A stretch of 64,000 nt of DNA from Eledone cirrhosa. Lineage: Eukaryota. Each line of letters starts with the position of its first letter. Positions within the stretch are counted from its first letter, which is position 1. Location: positions 183,334,001 to 183,398,000 of the forward strand of contig OZ024743.1 of assembly GCA_964016885.1 (NCBI GenBank), written 5' to 3'. Under the pieces are notes generated by a model. The model saw only the letters and a list, made by a program, of their open reading frames with translations, was not told where the DNA came from and made no database searches. Made by a program: the position numbers and the translations under genes. This document shows, one piece after another, positions 11,949 through 63,405 of this stretch.

Positions 11949-14280
11949 CATCATCATCATCATTTTACGTCCGCTTTTCCCTGCTTGCAAGGGTGGGACG
12001 GGTTTTATTCAGCACAGCATCTCTCCACTCGTCACGGTCCCTCGTCATCTCCACCTTGAGCTTCAATGATCTGAGGTCTGTTCTCACCACCTCCGCCCAT
12101 GTTTTTTGTGGTCTACCTCTACCACGTCTTCCTTCAACTGGCAATTCCTGGCACTTCTTCACCCATCGGTCATCCTCCATGCGCATCACATGTCCATACC
12201 ACCTCAGTCTCCTCTCCCGTACACTACATTCTATCCCTCTCAGACAGTTTCTCTCTCAACACATTTATGCTGGGTCGTTCACGCACATTTACACTGCACA
12301 TCCAACGGAGCATGCTTGCCTCATTTCTCTCCAGCCGTCGCATATCCTCTGCAGTTGCTGCCCATGTCTCACTACCATGCAGCATCGCGCTCCTCACACA
12401 GGCATCATACAACCGGCCTTTCGTACGCAGGGAGAAACCCTTCTTCGTCAACAGAGGAAGCAGCTCCCTAAACTTCCAACCCGTCCTTATTCTAGATACT
12501 ATGGCCTCGGAACACCCTCCTCCCATGCTAATCTGATCTCCTAGGTACCGGAAGCTATCCACCACTTCTATAGCGCCCTCTTGCATTTGAAAAATGTGTC
12601 TAACAGTGCGACTTCTACTGTCTAATTTCCCTGTACATCTACTGCATACATATTTCTCCCTACCTGTTAGTTTGCCTGCTATCCCGCTACATCTCTTGTG
12701 TACCCAGGATCTGCATTGTGTGCATTTTATAGAATTTATGCCAGTTCCTTTTCTGCATATCGAACATGGCCATTTCCCTGACGGAATCAGGGTTTTGTCC
12801 TCTTTTCTACTCATCAACACTTTTGTCTTAGCTAGATTCACTCTCAGTCCTCTTGCTTCCAACTGCTGTTTCCATAGCCAGAATTTATTCTCTAGCTCCT
12901 CTACTGATTCTGCTATAAGAACCAGATCGTCAGCGTAGAGAAGTTCCCATGGACAGCCAGTCTTAAACTCCTCTGTTATGGCTTGGAGGACTATAATGAA
13001 CAAGAGCGGGCTGAGGACCGAACCCTGATGTACTCCTACTTGTATCTGGAATTCCTCACTAAACTCCATTCCTACCCTGACTTTACTGAGAGTACCTCTG
13101 TAAGAAGTTTGCACTGTCCTCACAAGCCATTCCTCAACACCTAGCTTCCTTAGGGACCACCAGATGACAGATCGGGGTACCCTATCAAAGGCCTTCTCTA
13201 GGTCAACAAAGGCTAAGTATAGTGGCTTATTCTTCTCTAAGAACCTCTCTTGCAATTGTCTCACCAAGAAGAGGGCCTCTGTTGTACTCTTCCCAGGCAC
13301 AAAACCAAACTGCATCTCATCGAGTTTGACCCTTTCTCTAATTAGTTGTGCTAAAATCCTTTCTGCCACTTTCATAACCTGATCCATCAGTTTTATACCC
13401 CTATAATTGCTCCTCTCCAAGGCATCCCCTTTACCTTTGTAGCAATTTATGAGAATACTGCTGCACCAGTCTTTGGGTATGACACCACCATATATAGCCT
13501 GATTGATGATGCGTGCAACCAGTTTAGTGCCTACGTCCCCTGATGCCTTCAGCATCAGGGGACGTAGGCACTATTCAGCAACTATTCCTGATGGTCCGGC
13601 AGCCTTACCATTTTTCATTTCCCTAATCGCCTCTTGGACCCTATATTCGTCAATCTCAATAGCTGGTCCCTCTGTCGGATCCACCAAGGGTAATTTCTCT
13701 CTCTCCCATTCGTTCTCCACATTCATCAGTCTCTCATAATGACATTTCCAGGCCTCTTTTTTCTGATCATTCGTGACACTAAGTACACCGGCATCATCCC
13801 GGACACATTTATCTCCAACAACATCCTGATTTGCATTGACACACTGCCTTGCAATGTGGAACACCGCACGTCTCTGACCTTCCCGTCGCAGAACATTAGC
13901 AAACCTCCTACTCTCTGCCTCCCTGCGTGCTAAGTACACCTGACGTCTAACTTCTCTCTTAGTGGCTGTATATTCATCCCTACTCCCACCCATTTTCCAA
14001 GCCTCCCATGCTAGTCTTTTGTCTCTAATAGCCTTATCTACTGTGCTGTACCACCACCAGGTTACTCTCTGTCTGGTTGGAGCTCTGCTCCAGCCACAGG
14101 TTTCATCAGTAGCCTGCAGCAAGTTGTCACGTAAGAAATTCCAGTTATTATCTGTCATACGTCTCTAAATCGTCTTCTTTTTCGTCATATACATCTTGAA
14201 GGGCTTTCCTAAATTTGTATTTTAGTGAAAGGTCTTTTAGCTTCCAGACCTTTCTTCTCCACACCTTCCTATATGTCTCA
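11949..14280 (-). mobile_element. 5'-truncated RTE-clade LINE inserted in the 47/49-bp satellite
   Basis: RT motifs NYRGIKL, FVDLEKAFDRV, GVHQGSVLSPLLF, LLYADDL; C-terminal RGRGRPQKTW; (GAT)n tail; TAGAAAT target duplication at 11942-11948 and 14281-14287; disabled by a stop and frameshifts. Confidence 0.93.
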
Positions 14281-24584: not shown

Positions 24585-25768
24585 TCATCATCATCATTTT
24601 ATGTCCACTTTTCCCTGCTTGCAAGGGTGGGGCGGGTCCTATTCAGCACAGCATCTCTCCACTTGTCACGGTCCCTCGTCATCTCTAAGCTTCAGCGATC
24701 TGAGGTCTGCTCTCACCACCCCCACCCATGTTTTTCGTGGTCTTCCTCTACTGCTTCTTCCTTCTACTGGAGTTTCTTGGCACTTCTTTATCCAGCGATC
24801 ATCCTCCATGCACATCACATGTCCATACCATCTCAGCCTTCTCTCCTGCACACTACAACTTATCCCTCTTGTACCCAGTTTCTCTCTCAACTCAATCTAT
24901 GCTTGGTCGCTAAGACACATTGACATTGCACATCCCACGGAGAATGCTTGCTTCATTTCTCTCCAGCCGTCACATATTCTCCGCAGTTGCTGCTCATGTC
25001 TCACTACTATGCAGCATTGTGTATCTCATACAGGCATCATATAACCAGCCTTTCGTTCACAGGGAGAAACCTGTCTTTGTCAACAGAGGAAGCAGCTCCA
25101 TAAATTTCTTCCAGCCTGTCCTTATTCTAGATACTATGGTCTCGGAGCACCCCCCTCCCTTGCTATCTGATCACCTAGGTACCGGAAACTATCAACCACT
25201 TCTATAGATCCTACCTGCATTTGAAAAATGTGTCTATCACTGCGACTTCTACTGTCAAATTTCCCTGTATATCTATTGCATATGTAATTTTCCCTACCTT
25301 TTAGTTTGCCTGCTATTCCACTACATTTCTTGTGTACCCAATATCTGCATTGTGTACATTTTATAGAATTTATACCAGCACCTTTTTTACATATCAACAT
25401 GGCCATTTCCCTGATGGAATCAGAGTTTTGTCCTCTTTCCTACTTATCAACACTTTTGTTTTAGCTATGTTCACTCTCAGTTCTCTTGATTCCAACTGCT
25501 GTTTCCATAGCAGAATTTATTCTCTAGCTCCTCTACTGATTCTGCTATAAGTACCAAATCATCAGCATAGAGAAGTTTCCATGGGGATCCAGTCTTAAAC
25601 TCCTCTGCTATGGCTTGGAGGACTTTAATGAACAAAAGCAGGCTGAGGACCGAACCCTGATGTACTCCTACTTGTATCTGGAATTCCTCACTAAACTCCA
25701 TTCCTACTCTCACTTTATTGACAGCACCCTTGTACATAGCTTGCATTGCCCTCACAAGCCATTCCTCT
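24585..25768 (-). mobile_element. Degenerate second copy of the same RTE family
   Basis: GVHQGSVLS, LLYADDL and CTQC..VHKKC fragments in several frames; clear nucleotide similarity to 11949-13140. Confidence 0.9.
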
Positions 25769-25782
25769 ACAGTTAGTTATAA

Positions 25783-26298
25783 TCATCATCATCATCATCA
25801 TCAACGTTTAACGTCCGTGTTCCACGCTTGCATGGGTTTGGACGGGGGTAGTCCCACTTGAGGCAAGAGTGATTGTCTTGCTCGCATAGGACTGTCTGGC
25901 AGGTTTTCTACAGTTGGATGCCCTTCCTAACACCAACCACATTTACAGTGTGGGTCTGGGAGGTTTTTACCGTGTTGCCTACACGGCCACATTACAGCGT
26001 GGACTGTGTGTTTTTTTGTCGTGACACCTACACGATCTCATTTGTTTCGGCCTGGATGGCGCGGCACCAACATAACTTTACATAGAATGGGGTGGTGTGG
26101 ATGGGGTGGGGGTGGTGGCGGGACGGGGTGTATTTTGTTAGAGATGCCTACTGGCAAGGCGGGTCTTCTCTGTTACTGAGTACCGCCAAAGGTCTCGGTC
26201 CAGTGACATTGTCTTGGAGAGGTGTAAGTGTGTGAGGTCGGAGTTTATCAGCTCATCCCAGGTTTTTCTAGGTCTGCCTATTCCGTGGCTACCGTCTA
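25783..26298 (-). mobile_element. Second copy of the 9524-10303 element, inverted
   Basis: Near-identical reverse complement (GRPRKTWDELINSDLT..LSKTMSLDRDLWRYSV). Confidence 0.88.
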
Positions 26299-28984
26299 TA
26301 ATAATTGTTTCTACGTTTGGCACAAGGCCAGCATTTACCCAGTGCATTACTGGTACTTTATTTTATCGACCCCATAAGGATGAAAGGCAAAGTTAACCTC
26401 GGCAGGATTTGAACTCAGAATGACAAAGGCCGTAACACTATGCGTCAAAGTATGGCGTCCGACCCTCTACCGATACTGCCAATCCACCACCTATAATATA
26501 TATAATAATAATAATAACTGTTTCCATTTTCTGTTATTTCTCTACTTCCAGAGCTACAGCTGACTGATATGTATTCTGGCAATACTGCAATATAATATTT
26601 TCTAAAGGAACAAAACAAAACAAAACACTTAAACAGAAAGAAAGGAAAGAAAAAGATATCCAACTTGACATATGTCTTGTAATATATAACAAATTTTATA
26701 ATCCATTTCTCAGAGAATTCAGTTGTATAAATTCTGCATGTTGTTGGAAGGTAACTAGAGTCATTGGAAATAAATTCTTACTAATATAAATTATCATTCA
26801 ATGTCTTCCCTTTATTGTTTTTTTTTATCTTTCACATATTTTATGGGTGCCAAACAATGTAAGATTTCCAGTTTAAAATTTGCTTACTGGTTGGAAATAA
26901 AATGGATGAAATATTATAAGAATTACTTAACTCTCACATTTTGTTGTTTCAACAGTTGTTGTTGTTATTGTCATTATTGAGTGGACCCATTCATTTCAGC
27001 CATGAACAGTTCAATAGCAGAGAGAGGTAGCTGCTGATTGAAGGGTGTTTGACTTCTATTTTTAACAGATATCCTGTCATGATTTAGCAAAAGATATCTT
27101 TACAAATTGGGTTTGTTAATTCAAATGTTTATAGCATCTTTACTAATGAACGTATCATTCTCAAAATGTGCAGTATTATTGTAAAGGCTTTTCTATTAAT
27201 GTGATACAGTCATTGCTGTTTTGTACTTCAAGAATGTCTTGCTAATGTGGTTTTATGTGGTACAGGAGATTAAGAGTAAATGCTGATAACATTGTATAAC
27301 TTGAATGTTCGATCAAATCCACTTAAAAATGTTTTTTCTCTCCCGATTTTTGTATGATTTTAATATAATATACAACATACTATACTGTATGTAACATACT
27401 ATAATATATACAACATACTATACTATATATAACATTCTATACTATATTATATAACATACTATATATACAACACAACAAAGACAAAAACAAATAATATGAG
27501 TTGAACCTTTTATTTATTCTTCATATTTGTTAAATTTCTTAAAATATGTATTCCTTAAAAAATCTGATAAATGTAATTGGTAAAGACAGCCTAAAAATGG
27601 CTTTCAATATTTTGGAGGTGTTTTAGTAAAAATTACAATAGTCTGAGGAATTACTACCACATTCCAGCCTCTGTTCTACAGATGCTTGTCTCCTCCCTCT
27701 AATTTTACTACTACAGTGGCCTCTGCTCATTAAATGTGGCAGATCTCATGCCAGCATTGCTCATTCACTTTTAATACGTTCATAACTCTTCCTTTCAACA
27801 GCTATATTGTGTCTTCTCCACCCTGGCTTTGAACGAACTTCTACACTTGATTCTTCCTCTCCAGAACATCAGTCTTCTGGAAATCACTCCCTGGTCACGT
27901 TTTCCTGCAGCCAACAACTTGTAACTGCACAAAGAAGATGTAAATCTCACATGTTTCAAAGGGATGGTGAAAGCCATCAGCACAAACTGTTAGTCCAGGC
28001 CTAACTATTTTTTAAACATTTTAAAATAGAGAGAAAGCGGGGAAACTATATATCTACAAAGCAGTCTAGAACAGACTTCAAATTTCTATTCACAGATCAA
28101 ATATCGATACTTTATACCACATCTAAATCTTACAAGCTTTATATCTGTAATCCAACACTGGAAATTTATAAAGTTAAATATCAGTTTTAGAAGTCCCATA
28201 TGTAAAGCATATTTAAGCATTAATTTCATGGTGGCTGTTGCCCTGTTTGTTGGATAATACATCAAATACAGTTATTATATTCATATATTCATACTATAGA
28301 AAGTGTGTTCTTATTTGTATGGGTGGGAGAATTGTTTTAAACAAGACTGGTCAGTTGTCCAGTAGAGCTTTGTTGATTTGTCCAGTGAAATATTTTTTAA
28401 TCAGTTTGAAAAGGAAGGGCAGAAATTGATTTCATATTATTATATTTGGTTTTCTCTCTCTCTTATACACACACAAACATATATATATATACATAATAAT
28501 ATATTTGCTTCTCTCTTTCACTCTCCCAAACACACACATATTCATTTGCACTCACACACACATATATAGATAGGTAACTAGGTAGATACATAGATAGACA
28601 TAATTACTATTGCTGGTTTATATATATATAGATAGGTAGGTTGATATACATATCATCATCATCGTTTTTACGTCCGTTTTTCCATGCATAGGTTGGATGG
28701 GTCATTCTCAGCAAGGCATCGCTCCACTCGTGTTCCCTTATCATCACTGTGAGTCTCGGCGATTTGAGGTCTGCTCTCACAACCTCTGTTCCAGGTCTTT
28801 CTTAGTCATCCTCTACTGTGATTTCCTTCCACTCAGATTACCTGGTATTTCTTCACCCACTGGTCATTGTGCATCACATGTCCATACCAACACAGTATTC
28901 TCTCCTGCATACCATCTCAGTAAAAGACAAGACAAAATAATAACTTATAGCAATTAAGCCATAGCACATACACACAGAGTTTTA

Positions 28985-29110: not shown

Positions 29111-30686
29111 TATATATACTCTCATTGTTTCATGTACTTTTCTATGCTTGCATGGGTTGGACAGGTCCTCTTCAGCACTGCATCTCTCCTCTCACTGTGT
29201 TCCTTCTTCATCTGTGAGTTTCAGTGATTTGAGGCCATCTCTCATAGCCTCTGTCCAGGTCTTTCTTGGTCTCCCTCTACTGCAGCTTCCTTCCACTGGA
29301 ATCACTTCTTCATCCAACAATCATCATCTGTAACCAGCCCCTGTATACTTTTGTATATTAGGAACTATATTATACAAAGGTAGTGAATTCTTTGAAGGAG
29401 ATTTTACTGCTATTATTAGCAGCTTGAATTCGTTTAAATTTCTGTTGTTCAGTTCCAGGTCACGTCTTATGAGCAAAGTTATTCCAGCGACTATAAGCTA
29501 AAAAATATATAAATCGGAAGAATATATTAAAAGCAACAAAGGAGAAATATTCCAAATGAATATATAAAAAGATGTTGGCTTTGAAAGTTTCTATAATAAT
29601 AATTGTTTCTACTTTTGGCACAAGGCCAGCAATTACTCAGTATATTACTGGTACTTTATTTTATCGACCCCGTAAGGATGAAAGGCAAAGTTAACCTCGG
29701 CGGAATTTGAACTCAGAATGGCAAGGCGTCCGACCCTCTACCGATACTGCCAAATAATAATAGTAATAATGCTTCCTTTATTAACCACAAGGGTTGACAC
29801 AAAGTATAACATTAAGGACAATACAGAGCGGTACAAATGGGTATTTCTGCGTGTAAAAGGGAGTCATATAAGGGAGTTAACATGGCGACAAGGAAGGTCG
29901 CTTGACCACGTCTTGACCGAACAAAATATAATATTTTCACCCAAAACTGCCCTTTAAACACATGTCAGATGGATTACAATATTCATTATCACAATTACTT
30001 TCACTGTTCCCTGACAAATAGTACCAGTTTCAAGATAGAATTATTTTAACGAAGTATATATAATTTGACTTGATTTTCGCCAACAAACCACGTGTGGACA
30101 TGGACGGGGAAAAAAGGAAAAAAAAACAAAACAAATCATTACGTCCCTTAAGGATCGCAGTAAGTACTCCACAAAACATATAAACAACAATATACACACA
30201 GATTTATATACAGATACATACCATATGCATATACACACACGTGAAAAGAAACCACACTATTTCGTGTGAGACACTATACCGGCCAATTTTACCAATTTAC
30301 ATTGGTAAAATATTTCTTAACATTGACTTCGCTTCTAACCCACATACACCTTTTAATTATATATATATATATATACTAGCAGCTGAAAGTTAATAATTTT
30401 GAAAAAAAAATATTATTGAAAGTTTACTATAAAGAAGCAGTATCAGGGGAAAAAAAAACAAAAAAAACCCTTATTTCGCTGTTAATAAACAACTGCCTTC
30501 TACAGTACGTTTCATTTAACTTACGCAGCATATTTATTTGTTTACATGTAATGTAATTCAGACTCTTCTGTACACACACAACATTTAGGAAAACGGAAAC
30601 AAAATACACAAAAAAACAGACATTTTATTTCTATCGTAATCAAGTGCGCTAAACCTATATTGTTTACATTCTGTGTTTTTCTACGG

Positions 30687-32054
30687 ATGGGTAGAAATAA
30701 CAAAATTGCCATGGTGATATCCATCGATGAAATATGCGACAAAACCGGCCGATGTCCCAAGATAGAACATTGCCCAGAAAATCACATCTGCCATATCTGT
30801 GCGGAACCCGAAAACTCGTTCCGTAATCGCTGGGTCGAATGTGGAACCTGTCGCATCTCTGTCTGCCTTCAATGCGCCACAGGCTTCCGGAGGATCCCAG
30901 GCCCAAAAAAGAGACATCATAATGCTATGATGGATGGATTATGGGAGATGGTCCAGCTAAAATCCTGGTCCTTTCAGTGTCTGGCCTGTGTGCCTGCCTC
31001 CACGAATGTTATTAATGTTATTGAAAAACAACAACAACAACAAAAACCAATGACTGTGTCTTCCTCTACCATTGTTACTGAACAACGGCAAAAACCCATG
31101 ACACTGGCTTCTACTGTTATTCCTGTGGGAGAACATCAGAAACAACAACAACCCATGTCTTCCACTCCCAGTACATCTCGACACCAACAACTGGTGACTG
31201 TGTCTTCCCCTACCATTCCCGTGGAGGAACATCATCATCACCAACAACAACAACAGCAACAACCTGCGACTGTGTCCTCCCCTGCCATTCCCGTGGAGGA
31301 ACATCATCATCACCAACAACCTGCGACTGTGTCCTCCCCTGCCATTCCCGTGGAGGAACATCATCATCACCAACAACGACAGCAGCAGCAGCAGCAGCAA
31401 CAACAACAACAACAACAACAACCGACCAGTACAGATTTTGCGGAACTGCAACTAATGATTTCTGCTCTGAGAAGGGAAGTTGCAGGAATAGAGGCAAGCA
31501 TTCGGGTAGGACCCCACAATGAGGGGTCTTATCGGAATGCCTTGCTAAAGAATCTCCCTGTACCTCTTGCTGGAAAGACTGAAAAGACTGCGGAATCTGC
31601 TACCCATGAAGTGATTGCCATTGGGGTACCAGAGGACAAGGCTGATCTTCAGGCATTTGCTGCCAGCTCAGCCAAAGACCTAGGCTGTGTTCCCCCAAAG
31701 GGTGCCCTCCGCCTTGGTCGACCTGGTCCAAAACCCAGACTCATCAGGCTGTCTTTCTCGGACCCCGCAGAGGCAACCTCATATCATCTGGCCTCTGCTA
31801 AAGCTGGGCGTGAAAATCGGATTACCTTCCGAACACGCCCAGGCCTACCACCCCATGTACGTCCAAAACTACGTGCTGCAGCTTCCTTGAATCGGAACTC
31901 AGCACAAGATGAAAGTTTCAGTCTGCGTGATGATGGGCAGATCTGGAGGTTTGTCAAGGCTGGTGAAACGTGGAAGAGAGATACCAGCTGGTCTGAGTGT
32001 GATCTACCCGCAATAACTGGCAATGTAAAAACTGTAACAACTCTGGGAAACTAA
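30687..32054 (+). CDS. LINE ORF1: PHD-like zinc finger, polyQ/H repeats, coiled coil, RRM-like region
   Basis: CHIC...WVECGTCRISVCLQC...FQCLAC; LQLMISALRREVAGIEASI; VIAIGVPED...RLGRPGPKPRLIRLSF. First ATG at 30687, stronger Kozak ATG at 30711 (the track start at 30660 is TTG). Confidence 0.88.
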   Translation: MGRNNKIAMVISIDEICDKTGRCPKIEHCPENHICHICAEPENSFRNRWVECGTCRISVCLQCATGFRRIPGPKKRHHNAMMDGLWEMVQLKSWSFQCLACVPASTNVINVIEKQQQQQKPMTVSSSTIVTEQRQKPMTLASTVIPVGEHQKQQQPMSSTPSTSRHQQLVTVSSPTIPVEEHHHHQQQQQQQPATVSSPAIPVEEHHHHQQPATVSSPAIPVEEHHHHQQRQQQQQQQQQQQQQQPTSTDFAELQLMISALRREVAGIEASIRVGPHNEGSYRNALLKNLPVPLAGKTEKTAESATHEVIAIGVPEDKADLQAFAASSAKDLGCVPPKGALRLGRPGPKPRLIRLSFSDPAEATSYHLASAKAGRENRITFRTRPGLPPHVRPKLRAAASLNRNSAQDESFSLRDDGQIWRFVKAGETWKRDTSWSECDLPAITGNVKTVTTLGN

Positions 32055-32110
32055 ACCAGAACAACCTGCCACCCTCTACACACCATCATAAACTGCGAGC
32101 AGGGTACAAA

Positions 32111-34876
32111 TTGTTGTCATTAAATTCTCGCAGTTTATGCAACAAGATACATCTGTTCGAATCCTACGTCAGAAGCATCGACCCTGACTTCATCACAGTC
32201 ACGGAAACATGGGCACATTCCTTACTCTGTGATGGGGTTTTCACCATTACTGGGTACAACCTTTTCCGCAAGGACCGCATTAACCGCCGTGGTGGTGGTG
32301 TGATGGTCTACGTTCGTTCAAACTTTTCGGTAATTCCTTGCGTTGATTTGAACGAATCACAGGAAGAAGTTTTTTTCTGTGACATACGTATGACCATGTC
32401 AACACTTCTGCTTGGTGTTGTTTATCGACCCCCAAACTACCATCAGGACACACAGCTTTGCGATATCCTCAGAGTTGCTGCCAAGAAAACAGCCACTTAT
32501 GTGTTTATTGCAGGTGACTTCAATCATCCTGAGATCGATTGGGAAACCTTTCGTTGGCCACAGGATGCAAACGATTTCCTTGAACTAGTGCTGGACTCAA
32601 ACTGGTCACAAGTAGTCACCTCTCCAACAAGAGGTGACAACACTTTGGACCTGATCTTCACCACTACTCCTGAAGTGGTTATCAGTTGTACTACTGAGGA
32701 ACCTCTAGGCGACTCTGATCATGCTATGATCATTGCCAATCTGGCACTTGAGGGCAGCAACAAAAACCAGGGCCATCTCCAATCTGCTTGCTTTGATTGG
32801 AAGAGGGCGGATTGGAACTTGTACTGCACTGAGCTACAGCGCCCAAACTGGCATGAGATGTATAACTCTGGAGATGTGAACTCTATACTCCAGAGCATCC
32901 TGGACTCAATATGGATAGCGTGTGCAGCATCAGTGCCACGGAAGCGGAAAAATAACCACCCCAAAAGTGCAATCTGGGAAACTTCAGCGGTCCGACTTGC
33001 CAGGAAAGAACGTCGGAACGCTGAACGGGAATATAAACTGCATAGATCAGATGCCAACAGAAAAAAGCGGAATAAATCTTCTAACCATCTCAAGCAAGTG
33101 ACAAAGAAGGCAGTGCTTGAATTTGAACAGTGCATCGCAACCAATCCTGACAGTAAGGTGTTCTGGAAATATGTTCATTCAAAGCAGAGACCTCACTCTC
33201 CAGTTGGTCCTCTTCGCAATCACCACACAAGCCAGATCACTGACGATCCCAAGGAATGCGCAGAACTCATTGCTGAGTGCTATGCAAATATTTTTACTGT
33301 TGAAAACCAGAATGTACCATCTCCACCATCTCTAACATCAAATTCCATAACAACTATGGAATTTACACCTGCAATGTTGCGACGTCACCTTAAGAATAAG
33401 CGCAACTATGCCTCCCCTGGTCTTGATGGTGTGACATACCTGCTTCTCAAACGTGGCGGGGATTTCCTTTTGCGCCAGCTTTCTTTTTTCTTTCAATACT
33501 GTCTCAGCAATGGTGCTACTCCGGAGCAGTGGAAAACTGCCAGTGTCATTCCCCTGTTCAAAAAGGGCAACCGCATGTCACCTGTCAACTATCGTCCAGT
33601 CAGTCTTACTAGCTGTATGGCCAAACTGATGGAATCCTGTGTCAGAGAAACACTTTGGAACTTCTGGAGCTCTCACAGCCTCATCCGGCCCTCACAGTTT
33701 GGATTTATCCCTAACTCCAGCTGCTGTGATCAGCTTATCGAGTTCCTTGAGGACATCACCCGGATCACTGACAGCGGCTCATGGGTGGATGTTGTTTACC
33801 TTGACTTTGCTAAGGCTTTTAATTCTGTGCCACACAAAAGACTTATGGCAAAACTCTCTGCAATGGGTGTGAGGGATGATCTTTTCGACTGGCTGAAATC
33901 CTTCATTCTCAGCCGAAAGGAAGTAGTCACGGTTCTAGGACAGCATTCTTCACCATATGAGATGTCATCTGGTGTACCACAGGGATCTGTTCTTGGTCCT
34001 CTTTTGTTTGTGGCATATATTAATGACATAGATGCCAACTTACAGAATGCCACGGTACTAAAATATGCAGATGACATCAAGCTGTACCTTGAAATCAAAA
34101 GGACTGATCCTGAAATTTACAACTCTTTCCTACAATCAGACCTGGACACAACGCAGCAATGGATCACAGACTGGCAACTGAAGCTGGCTGTGGACAAGTG
34201 TACCACCATGCATTTTGGAAGGAAAAATCCAGCGTCCACATACTCCCTCCACAACACTGACATCAAAAAGTCCTCTTGTGAACGTGACCTGGGCATTACT
34301 GTCAGCAACGATTTGCGTTGGACAAAGCATGTCTCTAAGGTTGTCAAGAAGGCCGAGGGTGTCTTGGCATCACTCAGCAAGACCTTTGTTAGCCGCTCTC
34401 CAGCCATCTATTTAAAACTGTATACAGCTCAGGTGCGACCACACTTGGAATTCGCATCATCAGTCTGGAACCCCTATCTTGCTCGGAACATTGACCTCCT
34501 GGAAACTGTTCAGAGACGTGCAACCAAGCGCATACCCTCCATCAGACACCTACCATACTCTGAACGCCTTGCTTCCCTGGGCATGGATTCATTGAAGCTC
34601 CGACGTCTGGCAATGGACTTGGTGAATACCCACAAAGTTTTTAACCATCTCGCCAACTGCAACCCTGAGCGCCTCTTTGATCTCCATGTGTCTAACACAC
34701 GTGGACATGCCTACAAGATAAGAAAACAGCACAGCTCCCATGACTTTCGCAGACATTTTTTCACGCTCAGAGTTGCTGAAGCATGGAACAAACTGCCTGC
34801 GTCAATTGTTAGCTGCCGAGACACTGAATCCTTTAAGACACTCATGCTTCCCGAAATACGCCAAAACTACACCTGA
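32111..34876 (+). CDS. LINE ORF2: AP endonuclease plus reverse transcriptase
   Basis: APE motifs LNSRSL, VTETW, YRPP, GDFNHP, TLDL, SDH; RT motifs NYRPVSLTS, YLDFAKAF, GVPQGSVLGPLLF, YADD. The start at 32111 is TTG and the frame is open back to 32003. Confidence 0.96.
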   Translation: MLSLNSRSLCNKIHLFESYVRSIDPDFITVTETWAHSLLCDGVFTITGYNLFRKDRINRRGGGVMVYVRSNFSVIPCVDLNESQEEVFFCDIRMTMSTLLLGVVYRPPNYHQDTQLCDILRVAAKKTATYVFIAGDFNHPEIDWETFRWPQDANDFLELVLDSNWSQVVTSPTRGDNTLDLIFTTTPEVVISCTTEEPLGDSDHAMIIANLALEGSNKNQGHLQSACFDWKRADWNLYCTELQRPNWHEMYNSGDVNSILQSILDSIWIACAASVPRKRKNNHPKSAIWETSAVRLARKERRNAEREYKLHRSDANRKKRNKSSNHLKQVTKKAVLEFEQCIATNPDSKVFWKYVHSKQRPHSPVGPLRNHHTSQITDDPKECAELIAECYANIFTVENQNVPSPPSLTSNSITTMEFTPAMLRRHLKNKRNYASPGLDGVTYLLLKRGGDFLLRQLSFFFQYCLSNGATPEQWKTASVIPLFKKGNRMSPVNYRPVSLTSCMAKLMESCVRETLWNFWSSHSLIRPSQFGFIPNSSCCDQLIEFLEDITRITDSGSWVDVVYLDFAKAFNSVPHKRLMAKLSAMGVRDDLFDWLKSFILSRKEVVTVLGQHSSPYEMSSGVPQGSVLGPLLFVAYINDIDANLQNATVLKYADDIKLYLEIKRTDPEIYNSFLQSDLDTTQQWITDWQLKLAVDKCTTMHFGRKNPASTYSLHNTDIKKSSCERDLGITVSNDLRWTKHVSKVVKKAEGVLASLSKTFVSRSPAIYLKLYTAQVRPHLEFASSVWNPYLARNIDLLETVQRRATKRIPSIRHLPYSERLASLGMDSLKLRRLAMDLVNTHKVFNHLANCNPERLFDLHVSNTRGHAYKIRKQHSSHDFRRHFFTLRVAEAWNKLPASIVSCRDTESFKTLMLPEIRQNYT

Positions 34877-35161
34877 TGTACCCCTTCCATACACATGCAC
34901 ACATGTGTGTATCATGACTCGTGCACTGTTCATTTTACTGATGTTTTTGCATTGCCCTATGTACTGTACATGCACTTTTTTGATGAGTTGTGGTGCACCT
35001 GGGCACTGTGCACAATATTTCGTTATTGTTATTATATCATGACTCATACACTGTTTATTTTCCTGACATTTGTACATTATTCTATGTACTATACATGCAC
35101 CTTTGATGAGTTGTAGTGCACCTGAGCACTGTACACAATAATTTCATTATTATTATTATTT

Positions 35162-35590
35162 AAAAAAACCCCCAAAACAGCGGATGTAACAAAAAAAGAA
35201 ACAATGAAAAATTCCCCAATAGTGGGGAGACTTCCGAGGGCCGCTCGTGGAGAAAGCCCACAAAAAAGCCACGGTTACCCTGACCGCTAAGGCAAGTGTT
35301 CTCTTCCAGTTTTCCTCCTACGATGCTACAGGCACACGCTCAAGGTAGGCCCATTCACTCGGGCCATTCTTGCCTCTCCCACCCACATCTCGGACATGCC
35401 CGGCTGACGGTACTTCCATGCCTGTAGAGTTTATTCCGAACTGGCAAAGCTCCTCGATGGCACTACCAGGCCAAGTATTTCTGGAAGTTGTCCATAGGCC
35501 CCGGCCTGAAAGTTCCCCCGAAGAGATTGGCTAGTTGATTTTCGTCGATGCCTCGAGTCTCCCTAAGGACGTCGTCGCTCTTTCCCTCTA
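35162..35590 (-). mobile_element. Deleted fragment of the same L1/Tx1-like family
   Basis: Similar to 48925-49110 and 49470-49595. Confidence 0.7.
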
Positions 35591-35592
35591 GT

Positions 35593-35925
35593 AATAAAAA
35601 AATTATTGTGTACAGTGTTCAGGTGCACTACAACTCATCGAAGGTGCATGTATAGTACATAGAATAATGTACAAAAGTCAGGAAAGTGAACAGTGTATGA
35701 GTCATGATATACATATATACACACACACGTGTGCGTGTGTATGGAGGAATATCAGGTGTAGTGTTGGAGAATTTTGGGAAGCATGGAAGTTTTGAAGGAT
35801 GAAGTGTCCCAACAGCTAACAACCAATGCAGGTAGTTTGTACCATGCTTCAGCAACTCCGAGCGTGAAAAAATGTTTCCGAAACTCGTGGGAGCTGTACT
35901 GCTTTCTGATTTTGTAAGCATGTCC
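35593..35925 (-). mobile_element. 5'-truncated copy of the same CR1-like family
   Basis: Reverse complement matches the end of ORF2 and the 3' UTR (about 34705-35145). Confidence 0.9.
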
Positions 35926-52584: not shown

Positions 52585-53142
52585 TAATTGTTTCTACTTT
52601 AGGCACTTGGCCAGCAATTTGAATGGGAAGAGAAAGTTGATTAAATCAACCCCAGTGTGTTACTGGTACTTTATTTTAAGGATGAAAGGCAAAGCTAACC
52701 TCGGCGGGAGTTGAACTCAGACTGTAAAGGACCATAACTCTATGTTGCACAACATGGTGTCCGACACTCTACCGATTCTGCCAATCCACCGCCCTTAATA
52801 ATAATAATTGTTTCTACTTTTTGGCACAAGGCCAGCAATTATCCCAATGCATTACTGGTACTTTATTTTATTGACCCCGTAAGGATGAAAGGCAAAGTTG
52901 ACCTCGGCGGGATTTGAACTCAGAATGGAAAGGGCCGTAACTCTATGCGTCAAAGCAAGGCGTCCGACCCTCTACCGATACTGTCAATCTGCCGCATAAT
53001 GGTTTCTTATATTGGCACAAGGCCTGCAATTTTGGGGGAGAGGAAAGTCGATTAAATCGACACCAGTGCGTGACTGGTACTTTATTTTATCGACCGCGTA
53101 AGGATGAAAGGCAAAGTTAACCTCGGCAGGATTTGAACTCAG
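52585..53142 (-). mobile_element. Cluster of three tandem tRNA-derived SINEs
   Basis: Reverse complement gives B-box GAGTTCAAATCC plus gcctttcatcctt..ggggtcgataaaataaagtaccagt core (resembles the MetaSINE-type central domain) and (ATT)n tails. Other copies at about 6650-6830, 16925-17035, 22005-22165, 26300-26490, 29600-29750, 51140-51360, 58460-58660. Confidence 0.85.
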
Positions 53143-63032: not shown

Positions 63033-63405
63033 GGATTGGCAATATCGGTAGAGGGTCGGACGCCATGCTTTGACGTATAGAGTTACGGCCCTTGCCATTC
63101 TGAGTTCAAATCCCGCCGAGGTTAACTTTGCCTTTCATCCTTATGGGGTTGATAAAATAAAGTACCAGTAATACACTGGGTATTGCTGGCCTTGTGCCAA
63201 AAGTAGAAACAATTAATTTCAACTCTTACTCGTACCACATAAAAAGATGGTGAATTGGCAGAATCATTAGTAAGGCAGATTGAATGCTTTGTGGTATTCG
63301 TTCCAGCTCTTTCTGATCTCTGAGTTCAAATCCTGCTGAGGTCAACTTTACCTTTTGTCCATTTGAGGTCGATAAAAAAAGTATCAGTCAAATACTGGGG
63401 TTGAT
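63033..63405 (+). mobile_element. Two tRNA-derived SINEs
   Basis: A-box-like tggcaatatcggtagag, B-box gagttcaaatcc, same core. Confidence 0.85.

Follow-up and report, generated by a model that had tools for sequence, protein, structure and literature searches.

A CR1-like long interspersed nuclear element (LINE) in a 64,000-nucleotide (nt) window of the Eledone cirrhosa genome (contig OZ024743.1) carries a slippery heptamer, G_GGA_AAC, directly before the stop codon of its first open reading frame (ORF1). Programmed −1 frameshifting at this heptamer probably yields an ORF1-ORF2 fusion protein of ~1,396 amino acids (aa), as judged from comparative sequence. The layout of the junction, its conservation, and the enrichment of heptamers at related junctions were observed directly, and from them we infer the frameshift. 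Comparison with relatives thereby supports the original prediction for this locus, that ORF2 is made as a Gag-Pol-like extension of ORF1. Coordinates of the features are collected in Table 1.

ORF1 lies in a frame open from 30552 to 32054 and ends CTG GGA AAC TAA, which places GGGAAAC in the X_XXY_YYZ phase with the stop immediately after it. ORF2 is in the −1 frame relative to ORF1 and is open from 32003 to 34876. Its first in-frame ATG falls in the peptide GGGVMVY, beyond the LNSRS and TETW motifs of the APE endonuclease domain. This arrangement is as originally described, with one qualification. LNSRS does stand ahead of the first ATG, but that form of the motif is private to the window copy, and LNARS is found in 29/29 other scored copies. 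The change from LNARS to LNSRS is due to T32126, which also shortens a downstream hairpin; this change and those at 32035-32036 occur in the window copy only. In PMC5009743, G_GGA_AAC, which the original prediction took to be an established −1 site, is an efficient one and stands with the heptamers most prone to shift. The junction thus has a heptamer in the 0-frame phase and a −1 frame open into a functional ORF that lacks a start codon. No AUG in the ORF2 frame lies at or overlaps the ORF1 stop, as it would in a SART1-type junction. Strict heptamers occur in phase at 2 of 453 codon positions in ORF1 and at 6 of 955 positions in ORF2. The chance of finding one at the last ORF1 position is about 1 in 200 per element before any comparison, which alone is not decisive.

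The element is young and present in high copy number. All 40 of the scored DNA matches are 99-100% identical to it, and an exact 30-nt junction pattern has 725 genomic matches, as compared to 0 for the control. The heptamer is kept in 101 of 105 distinct junction sequences, drawn from 155 partly overlapping genomic loci, and the four altered sequences are single copies. A second subfamily, B, is 81-82% identical to the window's subfamily, A, at the junction and retains the heptamer, the stop, and the phase. Subfamily B also has a −1-frame stop 9 nt 5′ of the heptamer. This stop means that openness of the frame from 32003 onward is not a conserved feature, and that entry into ORF2 is limited to the stretch between the heptamer region and LNARS, ~29 codons without an ATG. 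Two subfamily B copies, L091 (G000:C4:367252500-367258500) and L150 (G000:C3:19219501-19223511), have ORF1 and ORF2 fused into a frame of 1,381 codons through differing indels in the A run just 5′ of the heptamer. Searches of the same genome with the APE domain and proteins P0001, P0121, and P0122 returned subfamilies A and B only; a separate motif search of this genome gave no match. A degenerate-pattern search recovered two older copies, in which ORF1 ends GTG GGA AAC TAA.

Outside these copies, contigs from related organisms carry several changes and short indels just 5′ of the heptamer, including CTG to CAG, and the four contigs that span positions 32045-32054 have no listed change there. 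The codon before GGA therefore varies, being CTG, GTG in the two older copies, and CAG in contigs of runs X1 and X2 and in the distant relative L156, yet it ends in G throughout. As the original prediction required of relatives, the heptamer and the −1 phase are retained in genomic copies, older copies, contigs, and L156, and an AUG placed well before the endonuclease domain is absent from every subfamily examined. Among the alignments listed, the sequencing-run contigs show no joint across the junction, except for one 300-nt skip in a single X18 contig, and run X10 does not cover it; these contigs are uninformative on expression or splicing.

L156, a metagenome contig with 59% identity in the APE domain, is a more distant relative. 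Its ORF1 ends CAG GGA AAC TAG with the −1 phase retained, and its −1 frame is closed 6 nt 5′ of the heptamer. The flanks have diverged to the point that only 25/58 and 28/56 columns align. A C-terminal search with ORF1 gave 57 homologues, of which the 7 without the terminal W-x-R-x-x-x-W motif were left out, leaving 50. Gly-Asn (GN), the dipeptide encoded by G_GGA_AAC, is present in the variable tail of 40/50 (shuffle mean 6.6, maximum 17 in 2000), and the remaining 10 have Lys-Asn or Glu-Asn in the tail, counted without a shuffle control. The position of GN floats from 3 to 33 residues past the last conserved Trp; an exact GN C-terminus occurs in 8/57. The residue before GN can be encoded by a codon ending in G in all of the 40 homologues (0/40 exceptions; background 17%, P 0.0005). 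This pattern is the protein trace that would be expected of a nucleotide signal read in frame.

Junctions of CR1-like elements were then surveyed more broadly. The best 80 of 503 CR1-like matches, together with L001 and L092 for the window and subfamily B, made 82 loci; exclusion of 6 without a parsable motif, 17 without an upstream ORF of at least 150 aa, and 1 duplicate left 58 scored junctions. ORF1 and ORF2 overlap in −1 at 46 of these, in +1 at 7, and not at all at 5. L156 was scored among the last group, its ORF1 being broken upstream, and was read by hand. Strict slippery heptamers are in phase in 26 of the 46 −1 overlaps, as compared to 2 and 4 off phase. When G_GAA_AAC is added to the set, an in-phase heptamer is found in 42/46 −1 overlaps versus 0/7 +1 overlaps, and in 31/32 of the −1 overlaps that lack an AUG. 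The heptamers also concentrate at one end: in 35/37 long overlaps, the first of them lies within the opening third. In-phase slippery heptamers are thus enriched at the 5′ edge of −1 overlaps among related elements. Codon choice follows the same pattern: slippery heptamers encode the dipeptides EN, KN, GN, and LN at 41/62 sites inside the overlap, 7/193 upstream in ORF1, and 9/429 in ORF2. Keeping two frames open would also bias codons slightly, but presumably not 18-fold.

The heptamer type switches repeatedly among slippery classes over an APE tree of 38 loci and 8 proteins, in which the four +1 elements included form their own branch. In L167 and L184, ORF1 ends TTTAAAC followed by the stop. 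Heptamer and phase therefore appear conserved beyond coding need, with the caveat of shared ancestry. Three loci with −1 overlaps but no canonical heptamer (L169, L203, and L204) have an in-frame TCG GGG GAA/GAC ~70 nt before the ORF1 stop, which is possibly a G-run shift site.

These observations allow a mechanism to be proposed. Most ribosomes would terminate at TAA and release the 455-aa ORF1 protein (ORF1p), whereas a minority would slip by −1 on G_GGA_AAC and continue into ORF2. In a tandem slip, tRNA-Gly and tRNA-Asn would re-pair from GGA AAC to GGG AAA, giving a product that reads ...TLGN-LNQNN... across the junction. The fusion would carry the PHD-like region, the RRM-CTD, the APE endonuclease, and the reverse transcriptase (RT), and slippage would set a high ratio of ORF1p to ORF2 protein (ORF2p). 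Slippage might be stimulated by the adjacent stop, where ribosomes could pause or terminate slowly, by a weak helix that begins 6 nt downstream, or by queuing behind a hairpin that begins 35 nt past the heptamer. The last idea is speculation: 35 nt approximates the sum of a usual spacer and a ribosome footprint, and a ribosome paused at the hairpin might therefore hold its follower on the heptamer.

The hairpin, of 13-15 bp, had escaped the original prediction. For the window copy its fold z-score is −3.7, for copy L002 of subfamily A it is −4.6, and for subfamily B, where one compensatory pair (A-U to G-C) is found, it is −0.8. Spacers at −1 frameshift sites are usually 5-9 nt and rarely 12-15 nt (PMC5009743), and the hairpin was rejected as a classical stimulator on its 35-nt spacer. 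The downstream pairing proposed originally, cctgc/accct with gcagggt, is lost in subfamily B and was rejected as unconserved. The helix formed by 32058-32065 with 32113-32120 has a 6-nt spacer, and 85.7% of its cells are paired in a seven-row alignment, with no covariation. Together with the base of the hairpin it could form a pseudoknot, although this is speculative. The doubt voiced originally over a stimulatory structure still stands, and no canonical stimulator was found.

The main rival is that ribosomes stop at TAA and restart in the −1 frame at a non-AUG codon, namely one of the two CTGs listed in Table 1, aided by the hairpin and giving a separate ORF2p. Both CTGs are in frame and are kept in subfamilies A and B and in the two older copies, and the hairpin starts 18 nt past the first. 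Of the two elements for which a separate ORF2p of this kind has been proposed, L1 is thought to initiate ORF2 independently of AUG (PMC5009743), and SART1 uses a stop-start with downstream structure (PMC3708506). However, the junction of L156 has no CTG, offering only AGG, AAG, and a sole ATG two codons before the catalytic Asn. Reinitiation also does not predict the fixed −1 phase, the G-ending codon before GN, the choice of slippery codons, or heptamers hundreds of bases 5′ of the ORF1 stop at the edges of long overlaps. We therefore regard it as unlikely. ORF2 might also be read from a separate RNA, made by splicing or from an internal start, or be entered through an element at the junction resembling an internal ribosome entry site (IRES). 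AG dinucleotides are available at 32058-32059 and 32101-32102, and an IRES-like route has been suggested as possible for ORF2 of elements that lack long terminal repeats (non-LTR elements) (PMC3894237). Neither AG is preceded by a U-rich tract, the context of the second differs in subfamily B, and selection for slippery codons would be unexplained, making this explanation very improbable.

Two further explanations treat the heptamer as incidental or the frame as repaired elsewhere. Gly-Asn might be a peptide motif required at the end of ORF1p, with the −1 overlap an inherited accident and the heptamer a by-product; the homologue test was indeed made on proteins, and the surveyed elements have a common ancestry. 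The dipeptide, however, is predicted to lie in a low-confidence tail (pLDDT <50, residues 197-203 of the model), floats relative to the last conserved Trp, and is replaced only by KN or EN. Slippery encoding is ~18 times commoner inside overlaps than upstream, which largely excludes a peptide requirement, and such a requirement would leave no translation route for ORF2. We give it hardly any credence. Finally, the frame could be corrected in RNA or DNA, by polymerase slippage on the G3A3 run or through rare fused genomic copies that serve as the source of ORF2p. The fused copies L091 and L150 are examples of the latter, but their indels differ, each is single among the 105 sequences, and the two-frame layout is present in hundreds of young copies. 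Polymerase slippage would have to act on runs of three bases, which are short for it. Correction of this kind seems scarcely credible.

Several observations weigh against programmed frameshifting at G_GGA_AAC as the route to ORF2. The GN test was made at the protein level, and DNA evidence comes from the window's genome, the contigs, and L156. G_GAA_AAC joined the heptamer set only after the data had been seen. The surveyed elements are related, falling into 4 ORF1 clusters and into 11 APE clusters at 50% or 29 at 60%; because they share ancestry, P values are inflated and the counts overstate independence. A heptamer is missing from 4 of the 46 −1 overlaps, and in 14 of the 46 an ATG stands in frame 6 codons or more ahead of the catalytic Asn. 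Subfamilies A and B share a 33-nt stretch around the site with a single mismatch, but the element contains 19 stretches of this kind, this one included, so that it lacks significance by itself; local conservation was accordingly rejected as stand-alone evidence. As for structure, the hairpin is weak in subfamily B, the two older copies are predicted to fold otherwise, and the covariation of the hairpin is no higher than in shuffles (148/500 and 173/500). In the window, folding of the 70 nt past the heptamer does not surpass that of shuffles (z −0.76), and across 43 sites the downstream 70 nt have a median z of −0.04, with 6/43 below −2 as compared to 0-4 for flanking windows. No significant structure was detected at the usual 5-9-nt spacer in the window or at the 43 sites.

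The proposed frameshift resembles the viral and LTR-retroelement sites described in PMC5009743, which have the same heptamer and phase and a structural or RNA-binding ORF followed by a −1 polymerase ORF; a minority fusion product is predicted here as well. The present element differs in being a non-LTR element with APE and RT, in that no protease domain was found in its ORFs, in having no supported stem-loop or pseudoknot at 5-9 nt, and in that its frameshift is a prediction. Among APE-type non-LTR elements, a −1 frameshift is said to be necessary for ORF2 in Dictyostelium TRE5-A and TRE3-A, according to a figure legend in a review (PMC5911963). Those elements belong to another host and lineage and are likened to ours by description; TRE5-A is the precedent for a −1 frameshifted non-LTR ORF2. 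Human L1 and silkworm SART1 also tie ORF2 output to ORF1 translation on one bicistronic RNA (PMC2881922, PMC3708506, PMC5009743). They do so by reinitiation or a UAAUG stop-start that gives a separate ORF2p, in agreement with the translational coupling cited for them originally (PMC2881922, PMC3708506), whereas the present junction has no AUG near the stop, overlaps in −1, and is predicted to give a fusion. In architecture the element resembles the CR1-group LINEs with a type IIC ORF1 (PMC4120745), which likewise have two ORFs, APE and RT, and a PHD-like region followed by a predicted L1 ORF1p-like fold. The words "frameshift" and "overlap" are nowhere present in the main text of that paper.

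The non-LTR passage of PMC5009743 covers HeT-A, TART, and mammalian LINEs, and CR1 does not occur in the first 300,000 of its 449,034 characters. Slippery sites at the junctions of CR1 elements are not described in the partial texts searched (including PMC4120745, PMC2734521, PMC13343379, PMC3894237, PMC12503042, PMC1965478, and PMC5006619), a search whose scope did not extend to the 1990s papers on full-length CR1 elements, most subscription papers, Repbase notes, or supplements. We would thus describe the finding as a known mechanism in an element class where it seems undescribed, with strong comparative support. The 1990s descriptions of full-length CR1 elements reportedly noted overlapping ORFs.

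The question has some reach: a 2013 review (PMC3894237) lists non-LTR ORF2 translation as open, and CR1-group elements rank with the most abundant repeats of animals (PMC13343379). It is fairly probable that −1 frameshifting is general and ancient in two-ORF CR1-group LINEs, kept across unrelated ORF1 types by swapping G_GGA_AAC, G_GAA_AAC, A_AAA_AAC, and U_UUA_AAC, in most cases with no classical pseudoknot, the true enzyme being an overlooked ORF1-APE-RT fusion. If frameshifting does take place, the annotated sequence of ORF2p, its N-terminus, the stoichiometry of the ribonucleoprotein, and the design of retrotransposition assays would all change, and LINEs would have Gag-Pol logic in common with LTR elements. 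The missing classical stimulator may indicate another route to slippage. Because the site is seven bases long and the family is young, with copies in the hundreds, the question is readily testable.

Table 1. Features of the CR1-like LINE and its ORF1-ORF2 junction (positions in the window).
Feature	Position	Strand	Basis or remark
CR1-like LINE, full-length copy, ~5.3 kb	29879..35160	+	Most frequent 5′ alignment starts (29879/29882) and 3′ ends (near 35160) of genomic copies
ORF1, 455 aa, C-terminus L-G-N-stop	30687..32054	+	Start Met agrees with homologues P0121 and P0122
PHD-like cysteine-rich region, ORF1	30789..30989	+	Cys pattern by eye
ORF1 helix-RRM-CTD region, predicted L1 ORF1p-like fold	31443..32000	+	AlphaFold2, Foldseek
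ORF2 open frame (−1), 957 codons	32003..34876	+	Predicted entry 32051
Slippery heptamer G_GGA_AAC, predicted −1 shift site	32045..32051	+	ORF1 codons CTG GGA AAC
ORF1 stop TAA, directly 3′ of heptamer	32052..32054	+	
Weak candidate helix, 32058-32065 with 32113-32120, 6-nt spacer	32058..32120	+	Alignment, 7 rows
In-frame CTG, candidate non-AUG start under reinitiation	32066..32068	+	Second CTG at 32093-32095
Hairpin, 13-15 bp, 35 nt past heptamer	32087..32139	+	Fold z-scores
APE endonuclease domain	32123..32722	+	PF03372, E 1.3e-14
First ATG of ORF2 frame, within APE domain	32303..32305	+	
Reverse transcriptase domain	33566..34252	+	PF00078, E 6.8e-36
3′ untranslated region with 125-nt tandem duplication and (ATT)n tail	34877..35160	+	

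The element has the hallmarks of an APE-type non-LTR retrotransposon: dispersed copies, 5′ truncations, a short 3′ untranslated region, and a simple-repeat tail. A Pfam scan of ORF2 gives APE followed by RT, with no RNase H and no extra C-terminal domain. The PHD-like region of ORF1 has no Pfam match. The C-terminal half of ORF1 was modeled by AlphaFold2 with a mean pLDDT of 83.7, and the top Foldseek matches to the model are human LINE-1 ORF1p (E 4.8e-06, at a low TM of ~0.38); no solved structure was matched significantly when searched with a profile of the ORF1 alignment. An L1 ORF1p-like RRM-CTD fold is therefore predicted for this half, which together with the PHD-like region fits type IIC, PHD plus L1-like coiled coil-RRM-CTD, of PMC4120745. 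The best named match to ORF1 is an Octopus vulgaris protein (61% identity). Among the best named matches to ORF2 are bird proteins annotated as RT-domain proteins, which we take to be CR1-derived. The APE tree, which has weak deep branches and no labeled references from other clades, does not place the element in CR1 as against L2, Crack, Daphne, or Kiri.

Other observations concern the element and its surroundings. Positions 31030-31425 of ORF1 encode Gln/His-rich repeats, of a 63-nt type and as CAA/CAG runs, and differ in length from copy to copy (frames of 442-521 codons). The two units of the 125-nt tandem duplication in the 3′ untranslated region (34910-35159) are 83% identical, and an ATT-rich stretch closes each. 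Elsewhere in the genome, ~30 copies of the element lie on the minus strand of G000:C28 between 124.7 and 126.35 Mb (L040-L060 and L032) at 30-140-kb spacing, which suggests that the LINE is carried within a large tandem segmental array. Within the window, a related subfamily (77% aa identity) is represented by a 3′ fragment that lies inverted at 35589-35925 on the minus strand, ~430 nt past the element. Fragments of other, distant RT elements are found on the minus strand at 12881-14035 and 25513-25713 (24% and 34% identity to ORF2). A short dispersed repeat resembling a short interspersed nuclear element lies just 5′ of the LINE at 29596-29726 and recurs at ~15 further places, for example 63090-63215, 52798-52933, and 26298-26426.

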